Positions 6,332 through 52,752 are shown, numbered from the stretch's first letter. The stretch is 64,000 nt of DNA from an uncultured Alphaproteobacteria bacterium (GCA_944392265.1 CALXWC010000004.1:3983-67982), one strand, 5' to 3'. The notes: a model not told the origin generated them from the sequence alone. Numbers and translations are program-made.

Positions 6332-9300
6332 CTAATTTAATTTATCTAAGGCTTTTGCCAATATGTAGTAAATCTTACCAATATCAGCTCCTGAAATCAC
6401 GGAAAGCAAAATTCCGGCTTGTTCATTGCCTCTGGCTCTGGTGATAAGAGTTTCAAAGTCAGATAAATATTTGGTAACTAAGGTTCTGAATTCCATATTC
6501 TTTTCATAGAGCTTTTTAATGTCCAAAATTTGTTGTTTGGTCATATTTTTAGCTAAATAGCGTACAAATGCTCCGGTATCACCATTATAATACTTCTTCC
6601 AGATTTCTTCTTCAGCCGTAGGATTGAATATTCTGTTAATGTCAACAGAAACTGTTTCCAATCTTTCAATAATCTGTCCGGCATCTTTCAAAAACGTATC
6701 AATTTGGGTTTCTTTATATCTGTTTTCCAAATCGGTGATATTTTTTTCTGCCTTTTGCGCTGCATCGGTTACAGCTTTTAACTGTTTGCCTACCACTTCA
6801 TTAAAGGCAATTGTCTTTTTAACCAACTCATCTCCGTGCAAAGAAAAGTCTGAGCTTGTATCATTTAATACATTCATAACATCAGACACTTTCTTTAAGG
6901 TATCATCACCGGCGGCAATCAACACACCGCTTTGTTTCAAGAATACCTCACCTGATGTTCTGATTTCATTGGATATTCTTTCTGCATTAGAGGCAATTTC
7001 GGTGATGGTTGCACGTAATTTATTGCCTGAATTTTCAAAATGAGTAGCCGTAATTTTTGAGGCTTCTTCCATTTGCAGGCTCAGAGTTTTTAAGTTTTCT
7101 CCCAAACCCTTAACCTTTTCATAAGCCATATTCGCACGGTTTGATAATTGAACAGATGTATCGTTTAATACTGTATTAAAGCATTCAACCAACTCTTTAG
7201 TGTCTTCTGAAATCTTTATCATCTTATCGCTTTGTGCGGTTATAAGATTATTGATTTCAAACACACCGCTGCTGGCTTCAGCCGTTACGGTATTAAAGTT
7301 TGCAATGTATTTTTCATAATTCTCCATTGCCGTGGCAATCTTAGCACTGGATTTGTTAATGCTTACGCCCATATCGTCAACCAACTGACCTAATGAAATG
7401 TTCATTTGTTCAACGTTCTTGATTGAATCTTTAGAAGACTTGTTAACGTCTTCATTTATCTTCAATAATCTGTCGCCCAAAACATTAAATTCATAAGCAA
7501 TTTTTGAGGAGTTTTCTAATACACTTTCTGTACTGCTCTTGAACTGATTATTGATTTCATTCATCTTGTTAGAAATTTCAACAGAAGCATCTGTCAAATA
7601 TTTATATTGTTGAGCCAAAGAAGATTCACCCAAACGAGTTTGTGTGGCAACCGTGTTGGCAATATCTGTTAATGTTTCGGTTTGTTTTTCAAAACTTTCT
7701 TTAATTAAATCTGATTGAGCAATGGTTTTGTTCAAAAATTCATTAAAATTCTGAGACTGAGAATCTAACATGGAGATTGTATTTTTACTCTCTTGAACCA
7801 TGTTTTGATTTGCTATATTAATTTTTTCGCAATTAGCCATTATAGCAGAAGTGAAATCATCAGAACTCAAGGTCAAACCTTTAACCGAATTATTAAAGTT
7901 TTCAAAATTATATCTGAAGGCTTCAGATATTTGAGACATTTTATCGGTAATTTCTTGAATGAAACTGTTCACCTCATTATTTTGTGCGGCAATTGATTCA
8001 TTAACTTCTGCCAATTTATCAATTGATTTTACGGTTTTGGCAACAAAAGAATCAACGCGTTTATCTACATCTTCATCCAACAATGTCATTCTTGCAAAAA
8101 CTTTATCTGCGCTTTGTTCAATGATAGAAACTTGTTTTTTCAATGTGTTACCCATGTTATCCGTATTTTCGGTCAAACGGTCACAAATGTTGAAAAACTC
8201 ATTTTCTTGTTGTTTGAAGAGCAAGCTTATGTTTTCAGCTTTTTCATCTAAGGTTTGAACGACATCAGCCACATGTTTTATTGTAGCCTCGGCAGCTTTG
8301 TTCAAGCTTTCATTTTGCTCAGCAAAAGAAGAACTCAAACGTTCTACCGCTGTTTCTGAATTTGCCGTGGCAATATTAACATTAGCAGCATGTTTTTCTA
8401 AGTTTTCAGCAACGGTTATTGAACGTTGAGCCACAACATCAGTTAATTTTTCAATTTCTTTAGATTGTGTTGTTAAAATGCTTTCCATGCGTGCAACTTT
8501 ACCCAAAGCTTGGTCTGCCGTTGCATCAAAATTATGAGCTTGTTCGCTCAAGCTTACGTTAACTTCTTGAGCTTTGCTTACAGCCTTGTTGCAAACGTCA
8601 AATGTTTCGGCAAGTTGTTTTTTCAACTGTTCTACCGTATTGTTTGACTCATGGCTCAAGAACAAAGATGTTCTGGTCAACTCATCAATTTGATATTTAA
8701 GTTCAGCCTTAATTCCATCGATCTTGTTAATTGTTTCTTCAATGTTATTTTGTTGTTGAATAAAGGCACTCTCACCAACCTTGCTTTGAGCAACAACCAA
8801 TGAAGCGGCTTCGTTCAAGTTATCAGTATTCTTCTTAACAACACCACTAACATCTTCTAACTTAGCTTTGGCCAAATCTGTTTGTTCTTGAAGAGTATGA
8901 ACACTATTTTTGAAGTCTTGTAACAATAACTTGAAGTTGAGCATAATACTATCGCTGATTTTGACCAAATCTTCATGTTTTTTGTTAATATCTTCGTGTA
9001 TGCTGTTTGTATTGTTAAAGTATTGTTCAGAAAGAGCAGACATTTTATTGTTGCTTTCTTCGCTCATCAAAACAACATCTGTCATATTCTTAATTATTCC
9101 GGCAGATGTTCCAGAGATGTTGTCGGCACTCTTATTTAAGTTATTTTCAACAGCTTTAACATCTGAAGTAATCTTGTCTGATAAGCCTTGGAGGTTTTGA
9201 ACCTGAATGGCAATTGTTTCATCTATCAAGTTTGCTCTTGAAACAATCTTGTCTACTTCAGCGCTTAATTGACGATTGTGAGTATTAAACTTATCAGTCA

Positions 9301-10579
9301 AGTCATTAGAGAAATCATCTAATCCGGACATATAATTATCAATTGTCGCTTTTTGGTTTTCAAAAATCTCACTCACCTCACCAATGCTTCCGTTAACAAC
9401 TTGTTTTATATTATTAACATATTGGGCAATTTGGTTGTTTTGAGATTGGAAATCCATGTCTAAATGGCTAATGTTTGTCTTAATTTGATCTGAAATGCGG
9501 TTCAAATGATTTTCAACAGACACACTCTGATTAACCATAACATCGTCAATTTTATGAACGCTGGCATCAATTTTTTGGGTAATCTTATCTAATTGGGAAT
9601 CCATATTCTCAGATTGAGTATTCAAAGCGCCGTCAATTTCAACAATCTTGTTGTTAATTTTTTCAGCAATCACATCACAAGCGTTTACAACATTTTGCAC
9701 GGTTTGATCCAATTTATTGGTCTGACTATCCAACAACTCAGCCACACCAGAAACACTTTTAACAGTCATATTGCCAAAATCAGCCAAAGTTTGGTTGGCT
9801 TTATTCATTTTGGCAGTATTTTCTTCAACCATTGACTTAAATAATTCGCTTGATTTTTGCAACTCACTGATATTGGGGATAATTTTATCAAACAAAACTT
9901 GGCAATTTTGTTGCATATTTTCAGCAGATACGGAAAAATCGCTCACATACCCTTTGAAAGCATCTGATGAAGATTGAGCTTTGTTGGCAACATAATCAAA
10001 ATTTTGAACAAGTGTTTTAACACCTTCGGTTAACTCTACAATTGTGTGGGAAGAATAATTATCTAGTGAGGCAACGAGTTTTGCAAAATCATTAACTCGT
10101 GCACTTAATTCTTGTTTAATGATATCTGTTTGTTGCATGGCATGTTTGGTTACTTCTTGCAACTCAACAACTTGGGAACGAATGGCATCTGCCATGGCTT
10201 TGGCGGTTTGGGCGCCGCCTTCTTCGGGATATACCAATTGGTTCATGTAAGCACGCAAAAACTTTGCCTCGTTCTTAAAGCTTGTACCTCTGTCAATATA
10301 AGCCATTACGACCCAAATAATGGCCAAAGGTAAAGTTACACCGGCTAAGAATCCACCAAATTCGTCCGGCATCATTAAAAACAAGTTTGACCAACCAAAA
10401 AACTGGGTAATGTATATCAAAACAATGATAAACCATAATACGGATATACCTATCATCAAGCGAGTCAGGTTGTTGGCCAGCCAAGTTGATGATGCGTTTT
10501 CTTCTTTATAATCAACAACAGTGTTTTCAGACATAAATTTTGGCAAAGAAGGTTGTGCCTTAGGTCTTTGATTTGACAT
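6332..10579 (-). CDS. giant membrane-anchored coiled-coil protein (unknown function)
   Basis: Uninterrupted ORF of 1437 aa to 10645. ATG at 10579 (MSNQRPKAQ...) has an upstream GGGA; the ORF track starts at GTG 10645. Two N-terminal hydrophobic helices (LMIGISVLWFIIVLIYITQFFGW and FLAGVTLPLAIIWVVMAYI). About 1200 aa are rich in N, Q, S, E and K and look helical. A distinct C-terminal region of about 110 aa follows. Confidence 0.8.
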   Translation of the reverse strand: MSNQRPKAQPSLPKFMSENTVVDYKEENASSTWLANNLTRLMIGISVLWFIIVLIYITQFFGWSNLFLMMPDEFGGFLAGVTLPLAIIWVVMAYIDRGTSFKNEAKFLRAYMNQLVYPEEGGAQTAKAMADAIRSQVVELQEVTKHAMQQTDIIKQELSARVNDFAKLVASLDNYSSHTIVELTEGVKTLVQNFDYVANKAQSSSDAFKGYVSDFSVSAENMQQNCQVLFDKIIPNISELQKSSELFKSMVEENTAKMNKANQTLADFGNMTVKSVSGVAELLDSQTNKLDQTVQNVVNACDVIAEKINNKIVEIDGALNTQSENMDSQLDKITQKIDASVHKIDDVMVNQSVSVENHLNRISDQIKTNISHLDMDFQSQNNQIAQYVNNIKQVVNGSIGEVSEIFENQKATIDNYMSGLDDFSNDLTDKFNTHNRQLSAEVDKIVSRANLIDETIAIQVQNLQGLSDKITSDVKAVENNLNKSADNISGTSAGIIKNMTDVVLMSEESNNKMSALSEQYFNNTNSIHEDINKKHEDLVKISDSIMLNFKLLLQDFKNSVHTLQEQTDLAKAKLEDVSGVVKKNTDNLNEAASLVVAQSKVGESAFIQQQNNIEETINKIDGIKAELKYQIDELTRTSLFLSHESNNTVEQLKKQLAETFDVCNKAVSKAQEVNVSLSEQAHNFDATADQALGKVARMESILTTQSKEIEKLTDVVAQRSITVAENLEKHAANVNIATANSETAVERLSSSFAEQNESLNKAAEATIKHVADVVQTLDEKAENISLLFKQQENEFFNICDRLTENTDNMGNTLKKQVSIIEQSADKVFARMTLLDEDVDKRVDSFVAKTVKSIDKLAEVNESIAAQNNEVNSFIQEITDKMSQISEAFRYNFENFNNSVKGLTLSSDDFTSAIMANCEKINIANQNMVQESKNTISMLDSQSQNFNEFLNKTIAQSDLIKESFEKQTETLTDIANTVATQTRLGESSLAQQYKYLTDASVEISNKMNEINNQFKSSTESVLENSSKIAYEFNVLGDRLLKINEDVNKSSKDSIKNVEQMNISLGQLVDDMGVSINKSSAKIATAMENYEKYIANFNTVTAEASSGVFEINNLITAQSDKMIKISEDTKELVECFNTVLNDTSVQLSNRANMAYEKVKGLGENLKTLSLQMEEASKITATHFENSGNKLRATITEIASNAERISNEIRTSGEVFLKQSGVLIAAGDDTLKKVSDVMNVLNDTSSDFSLHGDELVKKTIAFNEVVGKQLKAVTDAAQKAEKNITDLENRYKETQIDTFLKDAGQIIERLETVSVDINRIFNPTAEEEIWKKYYNGDTGAFVRYLAKNMTKQQILDIKKLYEKNMEFRTLVTKYLSDFETLITRARGNEQAGILLSVISGADIGKIYYILAKALDKLN

Positions 10580-10731
10580 AAATATATTCCCTAAATTTTG
10601 ATAATTATCCCCATTTGACGAGCAAGAATATCCCCATATCATCACTCATCTCGCGTAGTGTATAATATTTTTTTTGATTTTTAAATATTAAAGTAATAGA
10701 TAAAAACTTATCCACAGCCTATTCTTTTATA

Positions 10732-16620: not shown

Positions 16621-17748
16621 CTACTGATAAAACAATTGTTTTATATTGTTTTCATGCATTTTTTGCAACAAACTTGCCTTCAGGCGCAACGCTTCTTCCG
16701 TTTTGATAAAAATTTGAGCATTTTTTTGAATACTCATTTCAGGTTGTGAACTCACTTCTTGTAAAAACGCAAGCTTTTCCTCTTTTTCATCAATATTTGA
16801 GCTCTGAAGACAAGCAATGGCATTTTTTATCAACTCTTCAGCTACAATATCTTGTCTGAACATCAGCTGTATTATATCTTCTGACCAAACATAGAGATGA
16901 GCCCCCATACAACAAAAGCTCCCCACAAGAAAAGCTCCAACATCATACATAGTCTTAGACCATCTTTTAGGACAAACCCAAATGGCACGTTGATGCAATA
17001 AAACTTCTTTCATCTTCTCTATGAGTTGATTTTGGGTTTCGTTTATTGCCGGATTAAAAGCAGATACCTCGCAGATATCTTCGTTATTTACTCCTAATCC
17101 ATTCAACAAGCCATGCACAATCTGATAATTAATACTGCCCCCGTCAAACTCCAAAACATAAAGTTTGGGTGCTTTTTTATAACTTTGTTTTATGTCATGA
17201 TAAATGTATGATGCATAAACAAAGTTATCCAAACTCACACACGGAACAACCAAAACATTAAACTGGCGAGCTATGGTTTTATATAAGCTTGCTTGTCTTA
17301 ACGCTTTGAAATCTGAAAGATTTTGTGCTTTATCTCCAGCCAAATCAACCATTTTTTTGATGTAATCTTCTTCCATATTTGGGGTATAGAATAAAAATTT
17401 ATCGGCCAAATCCGGTTTGGTTTGCTGCAAAGTCTTTAGATAATCAAAATGTCCGACAAAAAGTGTTCTTCCTATCAAACGAATATCTTGTAAGTTTCTG
17501 GAAAGCTGCTGATGACAGGCTTCATTCGGTGTCCTCCAAACATCCATATCTATGCGATAACTTACATAAAAATGATGAATGGACTGCAACTTGTTTGCAA
17601 TTTCCAGACTTGTCTTACCACTACCATAGACCAAACAGTTCACATTTTGCATTTTTTCCGTATCAATCGCATAAAAGCAATTTGTTTCCTTTTTAGGCGT
17701 TTCTTTGAAAACACTTAACAATGTTTCTAGAATTTTTTCTTTTTCCAT
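16621..17748 (-). CDS. hypothetical protein (orphan)
   Basis: 375-aa ORF with its own terminator. No SD upstream. No signal peptide and no recognisable motif. Confidence 0.6.
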   Translation of the reverse strand: MEKEKILETLLSVFKETPKKETNCFYAIDTEKMQNVNCLVYGSGKTSLEIANKLQSIHHFYVSYRIDMDVWRTPNEACHQQLSRNLQDIRLIGRTLFVGHFDYLKTLQQTKPDLADKFLFYTPNMEEDYIKKMVDLAGDKAQNLSDFKALRQASLYKTIARQFNVLVVPCVSLDNFVYASYIYHDIKQSYKKAPKLYVLEFDGGSINYQIVHGLLNGLGVNNEDICEVSAFNPAINETQNQLIEKMKEVLLHQRAIWVCPKRWSKTMYDVGAFLVGSFCCMGAHLYVWSEDIIQLMFRQDIVAEELIKNAIACLQSSNIDEKEEKLAFLQEVSSQPEMSIQKNAQIFIKTEEALRLKASLLQKMHENNIKQLFYQ

Positions 17749-17814
17749 AATTATAAAGATTAAGTTAATAATAAAATATATGTTGCAACCTTATACTCTC
17801 TTTTGCCTTATTGC

Positions 17815-22830: not shown

Positions 22831-23463
22831 TTAGTGTGTTCTCTCATTGTGTTTTATGGAGGATACTCCTTGAGGAGTTAACTTGCTTGATGACGGAGAA
22901 CAGTCGTCAGTCAACAAGTATTCTACTTTGGATAAGCAGCTTTGTAGTGTTTCTTTTGCTGCATCCCAAACTTGCAAAACTTTTCTGCGGGCCAATTTTT
23001 GCCACACTGACTTTTTTCTTTCTATCAATTTTTGATGATAATACCATGCAACTTCGGCATTCATCAAATTGACTTCCGGATAAGGCGTAAGATTTTTGCC
23101 GTTGTTTCTGAATATAAACGACAAATCTTGAATATCCTTACGGTTCGATGAAGGGTTCTTTGCCTTATAATCTTTTGCTATTTGAAGCATTCTTCTTCTG
23201 GCATGTGCATTCAGCCTAACCAAAGCTTTATACACTCTTTTCTCTTCATCAGTTGTGATAGATTTTTCACTAATTTTTTTATTTGGAGAATTAAAATAGT
23301 CACTTAATTCTTGGTTGCTGTAATTGTACAAACCGTACAATTCTGCCTTTAGCTGGACCATGTCCTGCACACTCATAGAGCTTAGTCTTTCTTTGTTTTC
23401 AATGCAAAAGACTACCTCTTCCACCTGCGGGGTCAGGCAAAATTTTTGATATTGTACATTCAT
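22831..23463 (-). CDS. hypothetical protein (orphan)
   Basis: 210-aa ORF. No signal peptide and no recognised motif. Confidence 0.5.
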   Translation of the reverse strand: MNVQYQKFCLTPQVEEVVFCIENKERLSSMSVQDMVQLKAELYGLYNYSNQELSDYFNSPNKKISEKSITTDEEKRVYKALVRLNAHARRRMLQIAKDYKAKNPSSNRKDIQDLSFIFRNNGKNLTPYPEVNLMNAEVAWYYHQKLIERKKSVWQKLARRKVLQVWDAAKETLQSCLSKVEYLLTDDCSPSSSKLTPQGVSSIKHNERTH

Positions 23464-23548: not shown

Positions 23549-24112
23549 TTATTTTTGCATTTGTGTTAATAAGTTTTTCATAACGGCTTGGTCAACAAAT
23601 TCACCTCTTTTGATGTACATATTTCTTTGTACATTATCTTTTATGGATTGAGCAACCTTGATATATTTTTTTTGCAAAACCGGAATACAGGCCGAAATTT
23701 CTCTTTTTTCGCCTTTTAAGCCGCTCTGCATTTCTCCTTCATAAACGCAATCCATAACAATATCAGGCAAAAGTTTATTTCCTTTGGTTAAAAAATCTGT
23801 ATAAACCCCTGCTCCGCCCGCTATATATAAGTCTTCGGCAAAGTCTTTGAAAAAGTTTATGTCATCAACAACAAAGTGATTCTCTTTGTCTGAGGGTTTA
23901 TAAGAAAAATCTGAAGTCAGAATAAAAATTTTGCAATTTGGAATTGTTCGATTGGGCAAGGCCTCATAAGTCAAACGCCCCATAACCACATTTTTTTCTT
24001 GAACCATATTGGTGAAAAAAAGTGTGTCTGACGGAATATTCCACGGAATGTGCTTGCCTATGGCAATAATATTGTCTTCTTTATGTCTGCACCAAACTGC
24101 TACTTTTGTCAT
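23549..24112 (-). CDS. dihydrofolate reductase-like protein
   Basis: 187 aa. IPWNIPSDTLFFTNMVQEKNVVMGRLTYEALPNRTIPNCKIFILTS and LYIAGGAGVYTDFL align by eye with the FolA motifs MPWNLPADLAWFK...VIMGRHTWESI...NIILSS and VIGGGRVYEQFL. Strong SD AAGGAGA upstream. Confidence 0.55.
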   Translation of the reverse strand: MTKVAVWCRHKEDNIIAIGKHIPWNIPSDTLFFTNMVQEKNVVMGRLTYEALPNRTIPNCKIFILTSDFSYKPSDKENHFVVDDINFFKDFAEDLYIAGGAGVYTDFLTKGNKLLPDIVMDCVYEGEMQSGLKGEKREISACIPVLQKKYIKVAQSIKDNVQRNMYIKRGEFVDQAVMKNLLTQMQK

Positions 24113-24187
24113 TTTTATTCTCCTTTTTTAGAGATTATACACCTTAAATCTAAAAAAAGGCTGAAGAAAACTCTCCAGCCTTTTCTT

Positions 24188-25066
24188 TTAGAAGAAACTT
24201 CTTAACCACCACAAAATTTTTCCGTGGCGCCAAAGTTCTTTGTGACGTTTATATTTTGCCAAGATATCCCAATTATTCTTAAAAAGATTTTCTGTTCTGG
24301 TTAAAGCCGGTACCTGCTGCAAAAAAACATCCCAATCAATATCATCAAAGCATCCATTCTGGTATAATATCAAATAGGCTTTTTTATACTTTAAGAACTC
24401 TATTCCCTCTTCACATTCGGTCAAATATTCTGCCCGATTTGAAACTAAGACCTTCTCAAATTGGTCGTGCCGATACAAAATTTGTAAAAGCTTTTCTCTT
24501 GGTGCAATGTCTTCATAAGCCAAATCATAAATCAGCTTATTCCAACTCTTTGAAGCTTCCAAGAATTTGAGTTCTTCATCCGTTGCGTCATAAAAATGAC
24601 CTTCTTTTTTCAAGTATAAATCATAAAGCTTATGTCTTCTCAACCCTTTCAGACTCATTTTTTCATATTGTTTATGATTATACAGAATGTCATCTTCTTC
24701 CATCTCAGATAAAGTATTCCAACATTCATGTCTTTCTAAAACATATACGGACGCAAAGGTTAATGCGTCTTTTGGCATATTTTTGCATTTGGTTACAACA
24801 AACTCATCAGCATTATCTTTACCCATATAGGCAACAAGCCAATTGTAAATCAACTTAATATCAGAAAAACGATATGCTTTTTCAACACATTTTAAGATTG
24901 TTTGCTGAGTAATACCCAAGCAATACATCATTTCCAGATGTTCAGGAAACAAAATATAGCCGTCATCATAAGTTTGAATTATCTTTTGCTCTTCTTCTGA
25001 AGTGATAATTCCATGCATAATAAAATCTTGATTTTTTATGCATTCTAACATTTTTTTTCGGTTCAT
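24188..25066 (-). CDS. paralog 1 of an uncharacterised W-D/K-H repeat family (ends ...WWLRSFF)
   Basis: 292-aa ORF. Shares with the three neighbours repeated W-[DN]-x-[LF]...[LY]-x-[KR]-H-x-x-[FWY] units and the C-terminal HGxxLWxxxxSFF tail. Confidence 0.7.
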   Translation of the reverse strand: MNRKKMLECIKNQDFIMHGIITSEEEQKIIQTYDDGYILFPEHLEMMYCLGITQQTILKCVEKAYRFSDIKLIYNWLVAYMGKDNADEFVVTKCKNMPKDALTFASVYVLERHECWNTLSEMEEDDILYNHKQYEKMSLKGLRRHKLYDLYLKKEGHFYDATDEELKFLEASKSWNKLIYDLAYEDIAPREKLLQILYRHDQFEKVLVSNRAEYLTECEEGIEFLKYKKAYLILYQNGCFDDIDWDVFLQQVPALTRTENLFKNNWDILAKYKRHKELWRHGKILWWLRSFF

Positions 25067-25173
25067 AATAATCTATTTTAGAATTAATAATTTGATTTTG
25101 TTTCAATGTATTATTTTTTCACTCTTTGTCAAATAAAAAAAGGCCGAAGAAAACTCTCCAGCCTTTCATTTTT

Positions 25174-26097
25174 TTAGAAAAAAGATTTGATAAACATCCA
25201 CAACTGTCCGTGTTTTAACAGAGCTTTGTGATACTTATGTTTGATTAAATAATCCCAATTATGGGCTTTTTCAGCATAAAAAGCAACCTCTTTGACACCC
25301 CAAATATTGGTAAACTTGTCCCAATCAATCAAATCATAACGCTCTAGTCTGGCAAGATCACGATATCGGTTATAATGGACTAATTCATCAAACATCTTAT
25401 GTCTTACAAAATAATCTGTTTGATAGCCCACATAATCTTTTTCGCCGTTTTCATACAAATAACGATGAAAATCATCCCTTGTATCAAAACCAAGAAAACG
25501 ATACTCTTGTTCCGATAGGTAAAGCCGGCGTAGACTTTTCAAATCGTGCTTTAGAAGATATTTTAGTATTGTTGGGAAACTATGATATTCATCATACCAA
25601 TCCAGAGCTACAATATCTTTAAACCGATTTTCAGTAATCAAAACCGCAAGAACTATTTTTCTTTTCTTGCTTTTTTCTATTGTTTTCAAGATCTCCATTG
25701 GCGCAAATAAAGCCAGCTCTTCATATGCATTTCTCAGCATCAAGACGTCCCAGGCCTGAATATTGACCAACTCCGAAATACTTAACTTAGTATCGCGTTT
25801 TCTTTTTTTAGGATATTTAGACCAATAGGCTTCAGCTTTTTCTTGTCCCCAAAGAGAAATCAAAAAATTCAACACATTTTCTTTACAGCTTTGACTGAGT
25901 TTTAACGTTTCTTCAATCTTATCTTCAAAACCGTTATCTATCATTGAATTTAAGATAAATGCCGTTATGCAGTGTCCGGCTTTAACCAAGCTCAGAAAAT
26001 ATTCTATTTTACCTGAGCGCAAAGCGTCATACAAGGCAAGCTCGCTTTGTCCGATAGAATTTAAGTTAATCAGTTCTAATCTTTTTTTATCATCCAT
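25174..26097 (-). CDS. paralog 2 of the same family (ends ...LKHGQLWMFIKSFF)
   Basis: 307-aa ORF and the most divergent member. Same C-terminal tail and W-D units (AWDVLML, LDWYDEY, IDWDKF, NWDYLIKHKYH). Confidence 0.7.
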   Translation of the reverse strand: MDDKKRLELINLNSIGQSELALYDALRSGKIEYFLSLVKAGHCITAFILNSMIDNGFEDKIEETLKLSQSCKENVLNFLISLWGQEKAEAYWSKYPKKRKRDTKLSISELVNIQAWDVLMLRNAYEELALFAPMEILKTIEKSKKRKIVLAVLITENRFKDIVALDWYDEYHSFPTILKYLLKHDLKSLRRLYLSEQEYRFLGFDTRDDFHRYLYENGEKDYVGYQTDYFVRHKMFDELVHYNRYRDLARLERYDLIDWDKFTNIWGVKEVAFYAEKAHNWDYLIKHKYHKALLKHGQLWMFIKSFF

Positions 26098-26269
26098 AAT
26101 TGTAAGTTTTAGAGTTAATAATATATTGGTTTCTTCATCAATATCACAAAAAAAAGTTTTGTCAAAAAAAGACTGAAGAAAATATCTTCAGTCTTTAATT
26201 TTTTTAGAAAAAAGATTTGATGAACTTCCACAAATGTCCATGTTTCAAAAGAACCCAATGTTGATGATT
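26098..26269. repeat. gene-boundary module, copy A (leader of paralog 2, terminator, and 3' end of paralog 3)
   Basis: 172 nt that differ from 27065-27236 at only a handful of positions or indels by eye. Confidence 0.85.
26161..26193 (-). terminator. rho-independent terminator of paralog 3
   Basis: Perfect 9-bp stem gactgaaga/tcttcagtc. A-run and T-run on either side. Confidence 0.7.
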
Positions 26270-27064
26270 TTGCATTAAAACATCCCATAATTCAGCTTTT
26301 TCCGCATATTCAACCGCTTCTTTTTTTGGGCCGAATTGATTACATTTTAGATATTCATTCCAGTTTACACATTCATACAGACCGACTTGAGCTAAAAGTG
26401 AATATTTTTTCCTTTGTTGCAAATAAGCAACACCTTCCGGAATGGTTGTCAAAAAATATGGCGTCACGAGCTCTATGATATTAAACTTTTGATGTTTGGC
26501 ATAAAAATTCAAAAAACACTCGTTATTCTGATATTTTTCGAAGTTTTTAAACAAAATATCCCATCTTTTGATTTGAGCCAGATATTCCATTGCATTTTCA
26601 TCATCCGGTTGTATTTTCCAGTTTGAATGGAAATATTGTTCATAAAGCTGATACTCATATAACCCATACGTAGACATTTTGTCGTACAAGCCGTGTTTAT
26701 ACAAAATATCATCGGCCCCTTTTTGCTGCAAAATATCCCAACGCTGATTTCTTTCCAAACCGTCATTAGAAACCAAAATCAGAAAATTATTATCAGAAAT
26801 GTTTTCTAAAATGAAATCTTCTGCTCTTTCTTTACCCAAAAGATCACAAAGCCAATCATACAGAGCTTCTTTCTCATATTTTAGCTTGGCCTCTTCAAGA
26901 CGCTTTAAGGTAAAAGATTTAAGAAATTCCGAACGAGCCCAAACATCTTTCGTATCTGGTGTTTGATCAAAAGTTTCTTGTATGGCTTTTTTGCTATCTA
27001 GTACTTTTTTCTTATCAGGCTCAGGCTTTTCACACAGAGCATCAATCGAATCCTTCTTTTCCAT
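26204..27064 (-). CDS. paralog 3 of the same family (ends ...LKHGHLWKFIKSFF)
   Basis: 286-aa ORF. Centre and C-terminus are highly similar to paralog 4. The N-terminal ~60 aa are unrelated to it. Confidence 0.7.
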   Translation of the reverse strand: MEKKDSIDALCEKPEPDKKKVLDSKKAIQETFDQTPDTKDVWARSEFLKSFTLKRLEEAKLKYEKEALYDWLCDLLGKERAEDFILENISDNNFLILVSNDGLERNQRWDILQQKGADDILYKHGLYDKMSTYGLYEYQLYEQYFHSNWKIQPDDENAMEYLAQIKRWDILFKNFEKYQNNECFLNFYAKHQKFNIIELVTPYFLTTIPEGVAYLQQRKKYSLLAQVGLYECVNWNEYLKCNQFGPKKEAVEYAEKAELWDVLMQNHQHWVLLKHGHLWKFIKSFF

Positions 27065-27236
27065 AATTGTAAGTTTTAGAGTTAATAATATATTGGCTTC
27101 TTCATCAATATCACAAAAAAAAGTTTTGTCAAAAAAAAGACTGAAGAAAATATCTTCAGTCTTTAATTTTTTAGAAAAAAGATTTGATGAACTTCCACAA
27201 GTGTCCGTGTTTCAAAAGAACCCAATGTTGATGATT
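27065..27236. repeat. gene-boundary module, copy B (leader of paralog 3, terminator, and 3' end of paralog 4)
   Basis: See copy A. Confidence 0.85.
27131..27161 (-). terminator. rho-independent terminator of paralog 4
   Basis: Same 9-bp stem gactgaaga/tcttcagtc, preceded on the plus strand by an A-run. Confidence 0.7.
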
Positions 27237-28052
27237 CTTCATCAAAGCATCCCATTGCTTGGCTCTTTCCGCATGTTTGACCGCTTCCTTTCTCTCTATA
27301 AACTTGTTTGAGTTAAGATATTCATCCCAATCAATGTACTCAAACCGACAGGTATGTGCTAAAATTGAATATTTTTTATTTTGCTGCAAATAAGCAAGCC
27401 CTTTTGAAAAGCTTGCTAAAAAAGCTGCATCCACGAGCTCAATCGAATCAAACTTTTCATGTTTGGCATAAAACTCCAGCAAATGTTCTTTATCGCGCTC
27501 TTCCATCAGGTTTTTGAACAATATATTCCAATTGTCGGTTTGAGCCAGATATTCCATTGCATCTGTATCATCTGTTTTAATAATTCTCCAGTTGGAACGA
27601 AAATATCGCTCATAAAGCTGATACATATATAATCCATACGCAGACATTTTGTCATACAAGCCGTGTTTATACAAAATATCATCAGCTTTTTTTTGCTGCA
27701 AAATATCCCAACGCTGATTTCTTTCTAAAGCATTATCTGAAATCAGTATCAAGAAATCTTCATCATAATTGTTTTGCAAGATGAAATCTTCTGCTTTTTC
27801 TTCACCCAGATAACCGCAAAGCCAATTATACAGTTTTTCACCCTCGTTGTAAAATTTGCATTTGGCAACACATTTTAAGATAAAGTCTTGAGAAAAGTTG
27901 CGCAGATATAATATCTCTAACCCATCAGAATCAAGTGGATATTCATCTTCAGCAAACATTTTAAGGATAATGTTTTCATCGGTATGCAACAATATAGAGC
28001 GTTGTATTTCTCTTTTTTGTTGCAGACTTTCTTTCATTCTTTTTCTGTCCAT
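27171..28052 (-). CDS. paralog 4 of the same family (ends ...LKHGHLWKFIKSFF)
   Basis: 293-aa ORF. N-terminal third resembles paralog 1 (ILKCV..K..F...KL[IY]NWL). The remainder resembles paralog 3. Confidence 0.7.
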   Translation of the reverse strand: MDRKRMKESLQQKREIQRSILLHTDENIILKMFAEDEYPLDSDGLEILYLRNFSQDFILKCVAKCKFYNEGEKLYNWLCGYLGEEKAEDFILQNNYDEDFLILISDNALERNQRWDILQQKKADDILYKHGLYDKMSAYGLYMYQLYERYFRSNWRIIKTDDTDAMEYLAQTDNWNILFKNLMEERDKEHLLEFYAKHEKFDSIELVDAAFLASFSKGLAYLQQNKKYSILAHTCRFEYIDWDEYLNSNKFIERKEAVKHAERAKQWDALMKNHQHWVLLKHGHLWKFIKSFF

Positions 28053-28133
28053 AATAGTAAGTTTTAGAGTTAATAATAAGTTATTTGTAAAAAAGCATAA
28101 TACGAATCATTGTTTTGTCAAGAAAGATTAAGC

Positions 28134-28162
28134 TTGCAAAATATGAGGTTTTTATCTATATT
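28134..28162 (+). promoter_or_regulatory. candidate sigma70-type promoter of ssrA
   Basis: TTGCAA (28134-28139), 17-nt spacer, TATATT (28157-28162). Confidence 0.4.
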
Positions 28163-28168
28163 AAGTCT

Positions 28169-28478
28169 TGCTGAGTTTTCAGCTATGGTACTAGAGGCTG
28201 TACGAAATAGGTTTTCAAGACCTGGGGGCAGTACCCAGCACCTCCACCAAAATTTTATGGGGGTGAAATAGGCTTGATTGGGAATAGTAAAGGTATGTAT
28301 GTCGTACTCGGTGAGATACCACCGTTATCGGTTCAAAATAAATGAATGCTAACGATAATAACGTAGCTCCTGTTGCTATGGCTGCTTAGTTGCAGTCGCA
28401 ACAAACTAAAATCCTTCTAGCTTAGGATAGTTAGAAGTGGGGTTTGGGTCACCCAGCAACAGAACGGCCCTTTTCTTA
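28169..28478 (+). ncRNA. ssrA: circularly permuted (two-piece) tmRNA gene
   Basis: Acceptor piece: T-arm ctggg/ggcagta/cccag, then cacctcc-A-CCA ending at 28249. After a 9-nt spacer, the coding piece starts GGGGGTG at 28259. This pairs with cacctcc and gives the G3:U70 alanine identity pair. Tag ORF gct aac gat aat aac gta gct cct gtt gct atg gct gct tag (28348-28389) encodes ANDNNVAPVAMAA*. Outer ends are approximate. Confidence 0.85.
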
Positions 28479-29224: not shown

Positions 29225-30052
29225 CTAATCAAAATCCAAAAAATCAAGCAACAAATCAATTGCGTTTTTGATTTTTGATTCACTCCATTCCGTATCATTT
29301 AATGAAGTTTCAAGAATATATTCGTCCAAATATGAACTTATTTGTTTGAGGTAGATAAAATCCATTGCATAGACTGATAAGATAAAATCTTCCAGCTTTT
29401 CAATATATTGAATTGCAATATTCTCTTGAGAGATGCCAAAATATGTTTTGTATAAGTAATATTCAACCGGATTCATCGGCTTTTCCATATTATCTTTATC
29501 AAGCTCTCTTTCAAACACATGAAGCAGAATATATCTTACCACATTTTGCAAAAACTCATTGCCGGAACACATTTTTTGTGCATGTTGCAAAACAGAACGC
29601 TCAAACGGGCTTAATTTTTTTTGCGGTTCGTATACCCAATCCCGTTGTTTTAACAAACGTTCAAGCGTATTCATATTCTCCATAGAATCGCTTATCAGTT
29701 TCTTTAATGCATCAGGATATTCCTCTTCAGGCACGGCTCTAAACAAAATGTCATCAATATATTCTTGCAACCGAATTTCTTCTCCGCCCAACAGATTGTA
29801 GGCAACACCCATTGCTTTGTATTTGGAAGCATAACGCCGTGAACTCAAAAAATATAAAAAATCTGAATTCCGACGCAAGATTTTTGAAAGATCGGTCACA
29901 TTTTTATATCTGCGATATCTGATTGTTGGGCCGAGATAAGCATTTTTGTTTGCAATTGCTAATATCTGTTCATTTCCAGACTGACTATATTCCCATATTT
30001 CTCCTTCACCAACTTTTGATAAAAGGAAATTAAAAACTTTTTCTTTTTTCAT
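29225..30052 (-). CDS. hypothetical protein (orphan, acidic C-terminus)
   Basis: 275-aa ORF with no recognised motif. Its leader carries the same ATATATTATTAA motif as the paralog family. Confidence 0.55.
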   Translation of the reverse strand: MKKEKVFNFLLSKVGEGEIWEYSQSGNEQILAIANKNAYLGPTIRYRRYKNVTDLSKILRRNSDFLYFLSSRRYASKYKAMGVAYNLLGGEEIRLQEYIDDILFRAVPEEEYPDALKKLISDSMENMNTLERLLKQRDWVYEPQKKLSPFERSVLQHAQKMCSGNEFLQNVVRYILLHVFERELDKDNMEKPMNPVEYYLYKTYFGISQENIAIQYIEKLEDFILSVYAMDFIYLKQISSYLDEYILETSLNDTEWSESKIKNAIDLLLDFLDFD

Positions 30053-30123
30053 AATTATGATGATTAAAATTAATAATATATTTTACATTTTTTCATCTAG
30101 CATATGAATAAATAAAAGACAAT

Positions 30124-45436: not shown

Positions 45437-46600
45437 ATGAAAAAAACTTTTTCAATTCTTGGCTTGTCTCTTCTGGCATCTTCTCCGGTTTGGGCGCAAA
45501 ATGTTGTTGAACCAACTTCGGCGCAAGCTCAAAAAAATATTTCGCCGCAAGATGCACAAACAATTTTCTTTTCGGAAGACTTTATTGACGAGTTGACGGA
45601 TGAAACATTGCCTGTGTTTACCGATGAAAATATTCCTTTAGAAAAAAATGCACAAGAAAATGCAAATTCTAAACAAACTCTAGCTCCTGCTAAGTCTGAA
45701 GAAATTCCCTTAGAAGAAAATTCGGTTAAAGAGATAAAAGAAACTTCAGAAAAAGCTGATATTCAAACACAAGAGAATCAAACTGCAGAAATGTCAGAAT
45801 CCCCTATAAAGAATCCTTCTGTAGAGGAAAATCTTGCTCCTGCTCAAAAAAAACAAGCAGAGCCTCTTGAAACAAAAACTGTTGAAAAGACAATTGCTCC
45901 CGCTGTAGCAATAAAAGAGTCTGCCTTAAAACAAGAAGAAAAAGCTTCTGTTAATGTAAAAGAAGAACAAAGTTCACAACCGGAAGAAAAAACACCTGTT
46001 GAGCAAAATCAATCTTCTGCTCCTATTGTTTTGCCGGAAAACGTTGTTACTCCTCAGGTAAAACAAGATTCTGAATCTAAGAAAGAAGAAGAGAAAGCGG
46101 CAGAGCAGATTCAAATTCCTACTCAAACAGAACAAAATGACCTGACCCAAAAAATCAGAGAATTACAACAACAACGAATGAAAAGACAAGCGCCTTCTTT
46201 ATTGCAACAAGCACCTGTTCAGGCTCCTACCCCAAAACCACAACCGATTTCCAAACCAAAGAGCAATGCTTTTTCTTTAGATGCACCAACATCTTTGCCT
46301 CAATCTATACTTCAAAATGATGCTTTATCAGTTAATATTATGGATAAAGGAATTAAGATTTCTCCGGAACAACGTGCCAGAATGATGATGAGAAAGAAAT
46401 ATAATGAAATGGACTTAAATCAGGACGGCATTGTTTCCAGTGCAGAATTTATAAAATTTAAGACAGATGAAGCACACAAAATTTCTGTTCAAGTATTTAA
46501 CCAAATTGATGAAAATCATGACGGCGTTATATCTGAAGAAGAATATGAAGTATTAATGCAGAAAATGATTGAAAACTACGTTACTCCACCCAAACAATAA
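45437..46600 (+). CDS. secreted low-complexity protein with two C-terminal EF-hand calcium-binding loops
   Basis: 387 aa. Signal peptide ...SSPVWA-QN. Long E/K/Q/P-rich region. Canonical loops DLNQDGIVSSAE and DENHDGVISEEE. Confidence 0.65.
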   Translation: MKKTFSILGLSLLASSPVWAQNVVEPTSAQAQKNISPQDAQTIFFSEDFIDELTDETLPVFTDENIPLEKNAQENANSKQTLAPAKSEEIPLEENSVKEIKETSEKADIQTQENQTAEMSESPIKNPSVEENLAPAQKKQAEPLETKTVEKTIAPAVAIKESALKQEEKASVNVKEEQSSQPEEKTPVEQNQSSAPIVLPENVVTPQVKQDSESKKEEEKAAEQIQIPTQTEQNDLTQKIRELQQQRMKRQAPSLLQQAPVQAPTPKPQPISKPKSNAFSLDAPTSLPQSILQNDALSVNIMDKGIKISPEQRARMMMRKKYNEMDLNQDGIVSSAEFIKFKTDEAHKISVQVFNQIDENHDGVISEEEYEVLMQKMIENYVTPPKQ

Positions 46601-52295: not shown

Positions 52296-52374
52296 CAAAT
52301 TAGCTGTTGTCATAGACCTTTTTTTATGCTATATTCTGAGCATCATAAAAAATTATTAATTAAAAAAAATAAGT

Positions 52375-52752
52375 ATGGAAAAGAAAAAAATTATTCTCAA
52401 TGTGCTCATTATCATTATGAGCCTTGTGAGTGCGGTATTAACAATTAAATTTGCACTCGGGATTGTAAATCAGATGATATCTTCTGGTTTAGGTATTATC
52501 CAAAATCCAATGTCATTGTTACTATGTCTTCTTGTTGGAGGTGCGGTTACGCTTTTTTTATTAGCAATAATAAAAAAAGTATTTGTAAGGATAGCAGCAT
52601 ACTATATAGGAATACTGCTCAGTGGAGCATGTTTCTATTATGCATATGGAGCGTTTACCCTCAATATTGGGATAGAATATACGCTGACATATGCTATGCT
52701 TGGTGCTATATTATTTGCAACGACTGTCATCATTGCAAAAGTATTTAAATAA
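52375..52752 (+). CDS. small polytopic membrane protein
   Basis: 125 aa with about 4 hydrophobic helices. No SD. Confidence 0.5.
   Translation: MEKKKIILNVLIIIMSLVSAVLTIKFALGIVNQMISSGLGIIQNPMSLLLCLLVGGAVTLFLLAIIKKVFVRIAAYYIGILLSGACFYYAYGAFTLNIGIEYTLTYAMLGAILFATTVIIAKVFK

Follow-up and report, generated by a model that had tools for sequence, protein, structure and literature searches.

Described alpha-solenoids such as ARM/HEAT, TPR and the clathrin/IFT-A alpha-zigzag are elongated, all-helical stacks of short antiparallel helices in which conservation falls on the hydrophobic core, and tandem arrays of effector or immunity genes (the repeat effectors of Legionella and Rickettsia; polymorphic-toxin islands) combine tandem paralogs with module replacement at one end and a terminal motif. 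Features of both kinds occur together in four tandem genes, here called X1 to X4, within a 64,000-nucleotide stretch of DNA from an uncultured Alphaproteobacteria bacterium (GCA_944392265.1, CALXWC010000004.1:3983-67982; hereafter the window, with positions counted from its first letter). The initial annotation of this DNA described the genes as an unrecognised family of repeat proteins and likened the array to secreted effectors, orphan immunity proteins and antigenic-variation families. The analysis presented here points instead to the local amplification of a lineage-specific core protein, rather than an effector, immunity or variation cassette: on balance, we consider it probable that X1 to X4 are lineage-restricted, vertically inherited, cytoplasmic, non-enzymatic protein-binding scaffolds or adaptors that were amplified locally.

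Open reading frame (ORF) calling returned four consecutive ORFs, all on the minus strand and in agreement with the four tandem genes of 286 to 307 amino acids (aa) first annotated: X1 (24188-25066, 292 aa; a deep-branching, divergent copy of subfamily A), X2 (25174-26097, 307 aa; from the older subfamily B, its ortholog in the nearest relative being L001b), X3 (26204-27064, 286 aa; a diverged duplicate of X4) and X4 (27171-28052, 293 aa; subfamily A, ortholog of the single-copy gene of related genomes). Alignment of the four proteins gave 28 invariant columns, and the G+C content of the array (0.33) is close to that of the window (~0.35). Each gene had been credited with its own leader and hairpin terminator, and all four indeed carry the same unit of a promoter-like TTGACA, a leader without a Shine-Dalgarno (SD) site and a hairpin terminator; 3' of each gene, a G+C-containing hairpin and T-run lead directly into the TTGACA and conserved A/T-rich leader of the next gene. 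The terminators, all on the minus strand, lie after X4 (27136-27164; AAAGACTGAAGA...TCTTCAGTCTTT followed by a T-run), after X3 (26168-26196; palindromic, of the same type as that of X4, repeat families D4 and D7), after X2 (25138-25167; GGCTGGAGAG...CTTCGGCC type) and after X1 (24151-24187; GGCTGGAGAG...CTTCAGCC followed by a T-run, preceding the SD site of folA, repeat family D4). X4 is preceded by a 77-nucleotide (nt) divergent control region shared with a transfer-messenger RNA (tmRNA) gene (28053-28129, minus strand), containing a promoter-like site (TTGACA-16-TATGCT, 28121-28094) and an SD-less leader with ATTATTAACT at 28068-28077. The -35 hexamer of X4 (28121-28116) lies no more than 10 nt from the annotated tmRNA 5' end, and the back-to-back layout of X and tmRNA is kept in all related subfamily A and B loci that include the flank, the spacer measuring ~77 to 100 nt. 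The promoter-like site and SD-less leader of X1 occupy 25067-25132 (minus strand; TTGACA-16-TACATT at 25132-25105, ATTATTAATT at 25082-25091), and the X2 and X3 leaders fall inside two conversion tracts (see below), with the motif at 26113-26122 and 27080-27089. With one half-site only, a possible CtrA box (TTAA-N7-TTAA) in the leader was rejected on inspection by eye.

The repeat unit of the family is nine residues long (x-x-[W/F/Y]-x-x-L-[L/A]-x-x). BLOSUM self-similarity at lag 9 reached z = 4.4 in X4, 4.8 in X3 and 3.0 in X2 (0.8 in X1, where the periodicity is weak), ranged from 4.4 to 5.4 across X4, X3 and the homologs P0009 and P0018, and when summed over 14 members gave z = 48 at lag 9, 22 at lag 18 and 16 at lag 27. 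The register can be read by writing P0018 in rows of nine residues (HLWDILAQR EEFETLAKN GQFDLLAKR GQYQLLVNY). The unit proposed in the initial annotation, W-[DN]-x-[LF] followed at a distance by H-x-x-[FWY], is real, but its 20 to 30 residues correspond to two or three of these nine-residue units. The helical repeat fold suggested at the same time was borne out by AlphaFold2 (AF2) models of X4 (11 sequences; predicted local distance difference test [pLDDT] 90.4) and X2 (39 sequences; pLDDT 93.3), both all helical, in which DSSP assigned 6-residue helices spaced every nine residues. In these models, the protein is predicted to consist of an N-terminal helical domain of ~95 residues and about 20 short helices built from nine-residue units; X4 runs from a canonical N-terminal domain through the nine-residue-repeat solenoid to a ...KFIKSFF end. 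With tandem repeats forming stacked helix-turn units, the family falls, as an architecture only, within the alpha-solenoid class. Using Foldseek E < 0.001 and a template modelling (TM) score of >0.5 as the threshold for a known fold (differences in solenoid curvature can depress TM), no match at E < 0.001 was obtained for the X2 and X4 models in the PDB (best E = 0.054 to 0.065; TM ≤ 0.29) or for the X4 model in BFVD (best E = 0.039; TM ≤ 0.28). The best matches were generic solenoids (clathrin leg 6wcj_A, probability 0.84; IFT-A; APC-ARM; importin-alpha; LGN TPR), and the models may share their architecture with known alpha-solenoids at class level. Across 39 diverse members, near-invariant positions besides the initiator methionine were limited to G41, W245, L248, W259 and L284 (X2 numbering), and the invariant columns of subfamily A plus X2 are mainly L and W, the remainder being two S and one each of G, M, D, H and F. 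This conservation pattern, family-wide essentially W, L and G, suggests that the protein is non-enzymatic. No membrane segment was detected by hydropathy in the X proteins (highest 19-residue Kyte-Doolittle mean of 1.42), as originally noted, and on that measure they are predicted to be cytoplasmic or otherwise intracellular. The isoelectric point (pI) has a family median of 6.65, with X1, X3 and X4 at 5.6 to 5.9.

The initial annotation also described a conserved C-terminal tail. All four proteins do end in SFF, but the pattern first given has one residue too many; the tails themselves read HGKILWWLRSFF, HGQLWMFIKSFF and HGHLWKFIKSFF. The tail lies at the extreme C terminus in every member of subfamilies A and B, where it forms a strongly amphipathic, basic-aromatic helix (hydrophobic moment 0.4 to 0.9, in many members 0.58 to 0.88). 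Because the C terminus continues the nine-residue register (last three units: NWDYLIKHK YHKALLKHG QLWMFIKSF), the tail reads as the last repeat of the solenoid, a C-terminal cap, and is probably structural. In distant members (P0051, P0056, P0045 and P0037) a further 20 to 40 residues follow the tail motif, which argues against a function requiring a free C terminus. The tail helix was modelled with a pLDDT of 95 to 98 to the end of X2, suggesting a packed helix over a free signal, and of 77 to 81 in X4.

The claim that the family is unrecognised was upheld. X1 to X4, searched together with their neighbors, had no match in Pfam or NCBIfam (E ≤ 1) and nothing credible in PADLOC or PHROGs (E ≤ 0.1), where a CARF4--CARF_PDDEXK match of X1 in PADLOC (E = 0.0023, 15 bits) was dismissed as chance level and X2 to X4 had no match. 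Pfam likewise returned no match for the 39 diverse members, including to Ank, TPR, HEAT/ARM, Sel1, LRV and PPR; the family profile matched no PDB sequence at E ≤ 10; and a literature search on 9-residue helical repeats found nothing relevant. The initial annotation had named a match to a characterised housekeeping family as grounds for withdrawing its proposal, and neither Foldseek nor the profile searches yielded a significant match. X is thus a new, undescribed protein family without a Pfam or PDB counterpart. Word-indexed homolog searches recovered only 9, 4 and 6 proteins, and the wider family came into view when 1.84 billion representative proteins were searched exhaustively with a profile (76 clusters at E ≤ 0.001, 55 of them at E ≤ 1e-10), the clusters being mostly 290 to 380 aa long and matched end to end. 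The sole source name among the homologs was “hypothetical protein [Azospirillum sp.]”, from a metagenome-assembled genome (MAG), and one homolog contig (L015) was labelled as human gut metagenome. As far as these sequences indicate, the family is rare and confined to uncultured, low-G+C Alphaproteobacteria with anaerobe-type genes. A neighbor-joining tree resolved three groups: subfamily A (X4, X3, X1 and P0004-P0015), subfamily B (X2, L001b and P0016-P0030) and subfamily C (P0027, P0051 and P0067).

Pattern scans of genomes and metagenomes recovered only 4 and 2 loci, respectively, and copy numbers given here refer to the locus, not to whole genomes. On one side of the array, and divergent from X4, lies a two-piece (permuted) alphaproteobacterial tmRNA gene (28130-28474, plus strand; Rfam RF01849), which scored 213 bits against alpha_tmRNA and 141 bits against tmRNA_permuted; no tmRNA was called by ARAGORN in this interval despite the strong Rfam matches. 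Beyond it in the window are SspB and an RHH_4 protein. On the other side, folA (dihydrofolate reductase [DHFR]; 23549-24112, minus strand; PF00186, E = 1.6e-17) lies directly downstream of the array, as it lies immediately downstream of the X gene or genes at every subfamily A or B locus, and is followed by a conserved 210-aa gene without a family and a PpiD-like rotamase. The DHFR of the window is 187 aa long, Pfam DHFR_1 covering residues 10-115 only (profile 8-112 of 159); its C-terminal third is divergent or extended, and a 187- to 189-aa form occurs in all related loci. The family-less neighbors of 210 aa (22831-23463) and 275 aa (29225-30052), both on the minus strand, flank the X locus and are syntenic in subfamily A loci L001, L002, L006 and L018. 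Neighbors across subfamily A and B loci comprise SspB, RHH_4, tmRNA (80 to 98% identical to that of the window), folA, the 210-aa gene, ThyX and dUTPase. The order SspB-RHH / tmRNA / X / folA was found in L001-L004, L006-L010, L014 and L016-L019 (L017 and L019 are short and show the folA side only), and every subfamily A or B gene with a recoverable upstream flank sits between the tmRNA gene and folA. One copy of X is present at the locus in L002, L006 and L018 (subfamily A) and in L009 and L014 (subfamily B), two in L001 (A and B) and L003 (both A-type), and four in the window. The initial annotation had counted single-copy, syntenic homologs without the tail as evidence against its interpretation; single-copy and syntenic homologs were found, and they keep the tail. 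In L004 (MAG BRZ_FT bin57, 9902-10537) the sole X gene at the locus is broken by an internal deletion and a stop codon (profile 3-116, the stop codon, then 239-306, with ~120 residues deleted), and may either be dispensable in that lineage or reflect an assembly error. In L015 (5723-6585; contig UESE01000298) an X member is split over two reading frames by a frameshift or sequencing error. Subfamily C genes have no tmRNA gene nearby and adjoin Fur and rubrerythrin, in a region syntenic with the left part of the window (HflX-Hfq-TrkA-Dus-giant ORF), including in the distant “Azospirillum sp.” MAG; a comparison of small neighboring genes (200 aa and 196 aa) between subfamily C and the window showed no similarity. 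The pattern across these arrangements is one of vertical descent, duplication and loss being local and occasional, and the ancestral tmRNA / X / folA locus held one or two genes, of subfamily A and/or B.

X4 is 80% identical to the subfamily A gene of the nearest relative (L001a; synonymous divergence [dS] 0.59, ratio of nonsynonymous to synonymous divergence [dN/dS] 0.18) and 43 to 49% identical to the single-copy orthologs. X2 shares 49 to 50% identity with L001b and P0016 (49% with L001b; dS 2.67, near saturation; dN/dS 0.16) and only 19 to 23% with X1, X3 and X4, and subfamily B members are the sole copy at the locus in other genomes. These ratios place the family under purifying selection. 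X1 is 31% identical to X4, is itself a cluster representative (P0010), and the only relative found for it above 50% identity is the same gene in a second strain (L017); it is a deep, fast-evolving copy. X3 groups with X4 and L001a, with 56% identity to X4 overall (dS 0.85, dN/dS 0.36). X3 and X4 had been described as unrelated over their N termini and near-identical in the center and C terminus. The first part stands, with no detectable similarity over the first ~140 nt, but the center ranges from 70 to 92% nucleotide identity, and near-identity is restricted to a central block of ~50 aa and the last 22 codons. The first ~46 codons of X3 are unrelated to any family member (the family profile match starts at position 28), and its N terminus (nt 1-139) matched nothing in the window or in any of the loci by BLASTN or TBLASTX. 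X1 and X4 both have the canonical family N terminus, in keeping with the likeness between the two reported initially. Because X3 is no less distant from X4 in dS than X4 is from L001a, X3 would either be an older duplicate that L001 has lost or have arrived by recombination.

Recent exchange between copies is seen in two tracts on the minus strand. Copy 1 (27065-27236; repeat families D6 and D7) takes in the final 22 codons of X4 together with the terminator hairpin, TTGACA and the leader that reaches the start codon of X3. Copy 2 (26098-26269) takes in the corresponding part of X3 (its final 22 codons, the terminator and TTGACA) and the leader that reaches the start codon of X2. The copies differ at 5 of 173 aligned positions (97% identity) compared with 82 of the 264 preceding positions (binomial P = 3e-21), and the coding part contains two substitutions; because both are synonymous, tract identity is attributed to recent gene conversion and not to selection on the protein. 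A strain from another sample (L017) carries X2-X1-folA with 98.5% identity over 3464 nt, and thus the array is not an assembly artefact. The tract and N-terminus data together bear out the tandem amplification and mosaic copies first proposed, and the locus provides a worked case in which an A/B pair of old origin was followed by a later duplication, an N terminus was replaced and a sharply bounded conversion tract took a terminator and promoter with it.

In the scheme we favor, the locus in this species grew from one or two genes to four monocistronic genes, with recombination between copies homogenising the 173-nt tract (gene 3' end, terminator, promoter and leader) and X3 gaining a new N terminus. 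The X protein would act as a protein-binding scaffold or adaptor, as its fold and conservation suggest, possibly held at the inner membrane via its amphipathic last helix, and the extra copies might diversify binding specificity or dosage. Several points weigh against this scheme. The word “scaffold” is drawn from the predicted fold and the conservation; no function can be transferred from a known protein, there being no structural relative by Foldseek (best E = 0.04 to 0.07); X may be dispensable where it is degraded (L004) or split (L015); and the tail may serve as a signal or anchor, because of its high hydrophobic moment and its constant terminal position in subfamilies A and B. The biology so far looks ordinary, and nothing yet contradicts ordinary paralog evolution.

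The resemblance to effector, immunity and antigenic-variation arrays drawn in the initial annotation was not sustained, given the synteny with tmRNA and folA, a dN/dS of 0.18, ordinary G+C and the lack of partner genes. It is unlikely, in our view, that X proteins are secreted effectors in which the basic-hydrophobic C terminus acts as a type IV/type I style signal and amplification diversifies host targets, a proposal that would draw on the repeat fold, on a basic-aromatic tail that is always terminal in subfamilies A and B, on local amplification with module replacement, on restriction to uncultured low-G+C lineages (one contig, L015, being from the human gut) and on relatives with small genomes (1.78-Mb contig). 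Against it, secretion-system genes were absent from the 64-kb window and ~20 related loci, with the exception of flagellar FliI/FliJ in L009; X is single-copy, syntenic and under purifying selection; and the tail motif lies within the protein in distant members, keeps to the repeat register and, in X2, is modelled at high confidence to its end as if packed. The absence of toxin or secretion genes from the window, reported at the outset, was confirmed, and no toxin, Rhs, CDI or nuclease gene stood next to X at any examined locus. We regard as very improbable the idea that the array encodes orphan immunity or antitoxin proteins or a phage-defence component: tandem, divergent paralogs of a small family-less protein do resemble immunity islands, as was argued initially, but the chromosomal position is fixed, the gene is single-copy across genomes with typical genomic G+C, and PADLOC offered only the chance-level match of X1. 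Stronger still are the grounds for doubting a contingency or antigenic-variation locus, in which copies would recombine, or switch via promoter homopolymers, to vary an exposed protein. The gene conversion tract, together with T8 and A7 runs in the intergenic promoters and 1-nt length differences between copies, would suit such a locus, but all four genes have their own promoter, and therefore there are no silent cassettes. Moreover, the spacer of the X2 promoter has a T8 tract of unchanged length in L017 (two strains compared), the 1-nt indels lie in A-/U-tracts flanking the terminator hairpin with none in the -35/-10 spacer, and hydropathy revealed no signal peptide, membrane segment or surface-anchor feature, making this the most remote of the readings considered. 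A wider caution for genome scans follows: a tandem, mosaic array with a conserved tail is by itself no sign of effectors or immunity genes.

A different role is suggested by the neighborhood. X could be an accessory factor of trans-translation or proteolysis that binds tmRNA, SspB or ClpXP substrates and is co-regulated with ssrA through the 77-nt region, although we hold this to be rather improbable. X is divergent from the tmRNA gene, with SspB beyond, at every subfamily A or B locus with upstream sequence, and alpha-solenoids are commonly adaptors or RNA binders. However, no tmRNA gene accompanies subfamily C, X occurs in a small clade only whereas two-piece tmRNA is found across Alphaproteobacteria, the proteins are near-neutral to acidic (median pI 6.65) and so atypical of RNA binders, and the adjacency could be inherited synteny alone. 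A more specific version, a previously undescribed type of 9-residue solenoid tied to the trans-translation locus (e.g., as a tmRNA/SspB/ClpXP adaptor, the four copies having differing substrate specificities), seems to us similarly improbable. Were the adjacency to tmRNA and SspB functional, X would be a part of the trans-translation machinery specific to one little-known, uncultured alphaproteobacterial lineage.

A decamer in the leaders of the array is shared with other genes in the window. ATTATTAAYT was observed seven times against 2.1 expected, with 0 of 100 shuffles reaching seven: on the minus strand at 17763-17772, 25082-25091, 26113-26122, 27080-27089, 28068-28077 and 30068-30077, and on the plus strand at 52352-52361. 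Each copy starts 23 to 25 nt 5' of the ATG of an SD-less gene without known function (X1 to X4, a 375-aa ORF at 16621-17748, the 275-aa ORF at 29225-30052 and a 125-aa membrane ORF at 52375-52752), all of which start M-[EDKN]-[KRED]-K-[KRED] with A-rich codons; AGGA or GGAG is present at most other genes of the window. The decamer is conserved upstream of orthologs in L001, L002, L003 and L018, and could act as a common element for regulation or for initiation independent of an SD site. No relationship was detected between the X family and the 275-aa and 375-aa ORFs that share the leader (hhalign probability <1%; 0.2% for the 275-aa ORF).

The remainder of the window is dominated by housekeeping genes (HflX, TrkA, Dus, FTHFS, ParC/GyrA, RecO, KdsA-type DAHP synthase, CTP synthase, TIM, MnmA, ProRS and ClpX), with the anaerobe-type genes rubrerythrin and flavodiiron protein, and no secretion, toxin, integrase or phage genes were found across its 64 kb. 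A giant ORF (6332-10645, minus strand, 1437 aa) has a sub-threshold match to ATG17_like (31.9 bits against a cut-off of 43) and has syntenic counterparts of 1316 aa in L012 and 877 aa in L011, where these lie close to a subfamily C X gene. A 387-aa ORF (45437-46600, plus strand) has C-terminal EF-hand motifs (PF13202, E = 1.7e-10) and no other recognisable domain.

Compared with the tandem effector and immunity arrays that it superficially resembles, the X locus differs in its fixed housekeeping neighborhood, its single-copy state in most relatives, its purifying selection and the lack of partner toxin or secretion genes at the examined loci; the adjacency to a toxin and the variable location typical of polymorphic-toxin immunity arrays are replaced here by a fixed position. 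A second likeness concerns MinD and FtsA, whose C termini carry amphipathic membrane-targeting helices; the X proteins, too, finish in a short amphipathic helix, which is basic-aromatic. The MinD helix of Bacillus subtilis includes ...KIKSFF..., similar to FIKSFF in X, and a hydrophobic moment of 0.57 was computed for the helix of Escherichia coli FtsA, within the range of the X tails (0.4 to 0.9). In X, however, the tail is in repeat register, is confidently modelled as part of the fold in X2 and is followed by extra sequence in distant members. Ankyrin repeats offer a lead, rather than a result, for the N-terminal ~95 residues, which resemble the ankyrin consensus by eye (e.g., LALYDALRSGKIEYFLSLVKAGHCIT in X2): DSSP of the models shows isolated bridge residues between helix pairs, and giant-virus ankyrin proteins were among the weak BFVD matches of the X4 model (E ≥ 0.04, TM ≤ 0.28), with no Pfam ankyrin match in 39 of 39 members. 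From the known alpha-solenoids X is separated by the lack of any Pfam repeat match at E ≤ 1, by TM scores of ≤0.29 and by its period: where theirs is 34 to 47 residues, X has 9 per helix-turn and 18 per hairpin, an unusually short repeat for an alpha-solenoid that may find use in the classification or design of repeat proteins.

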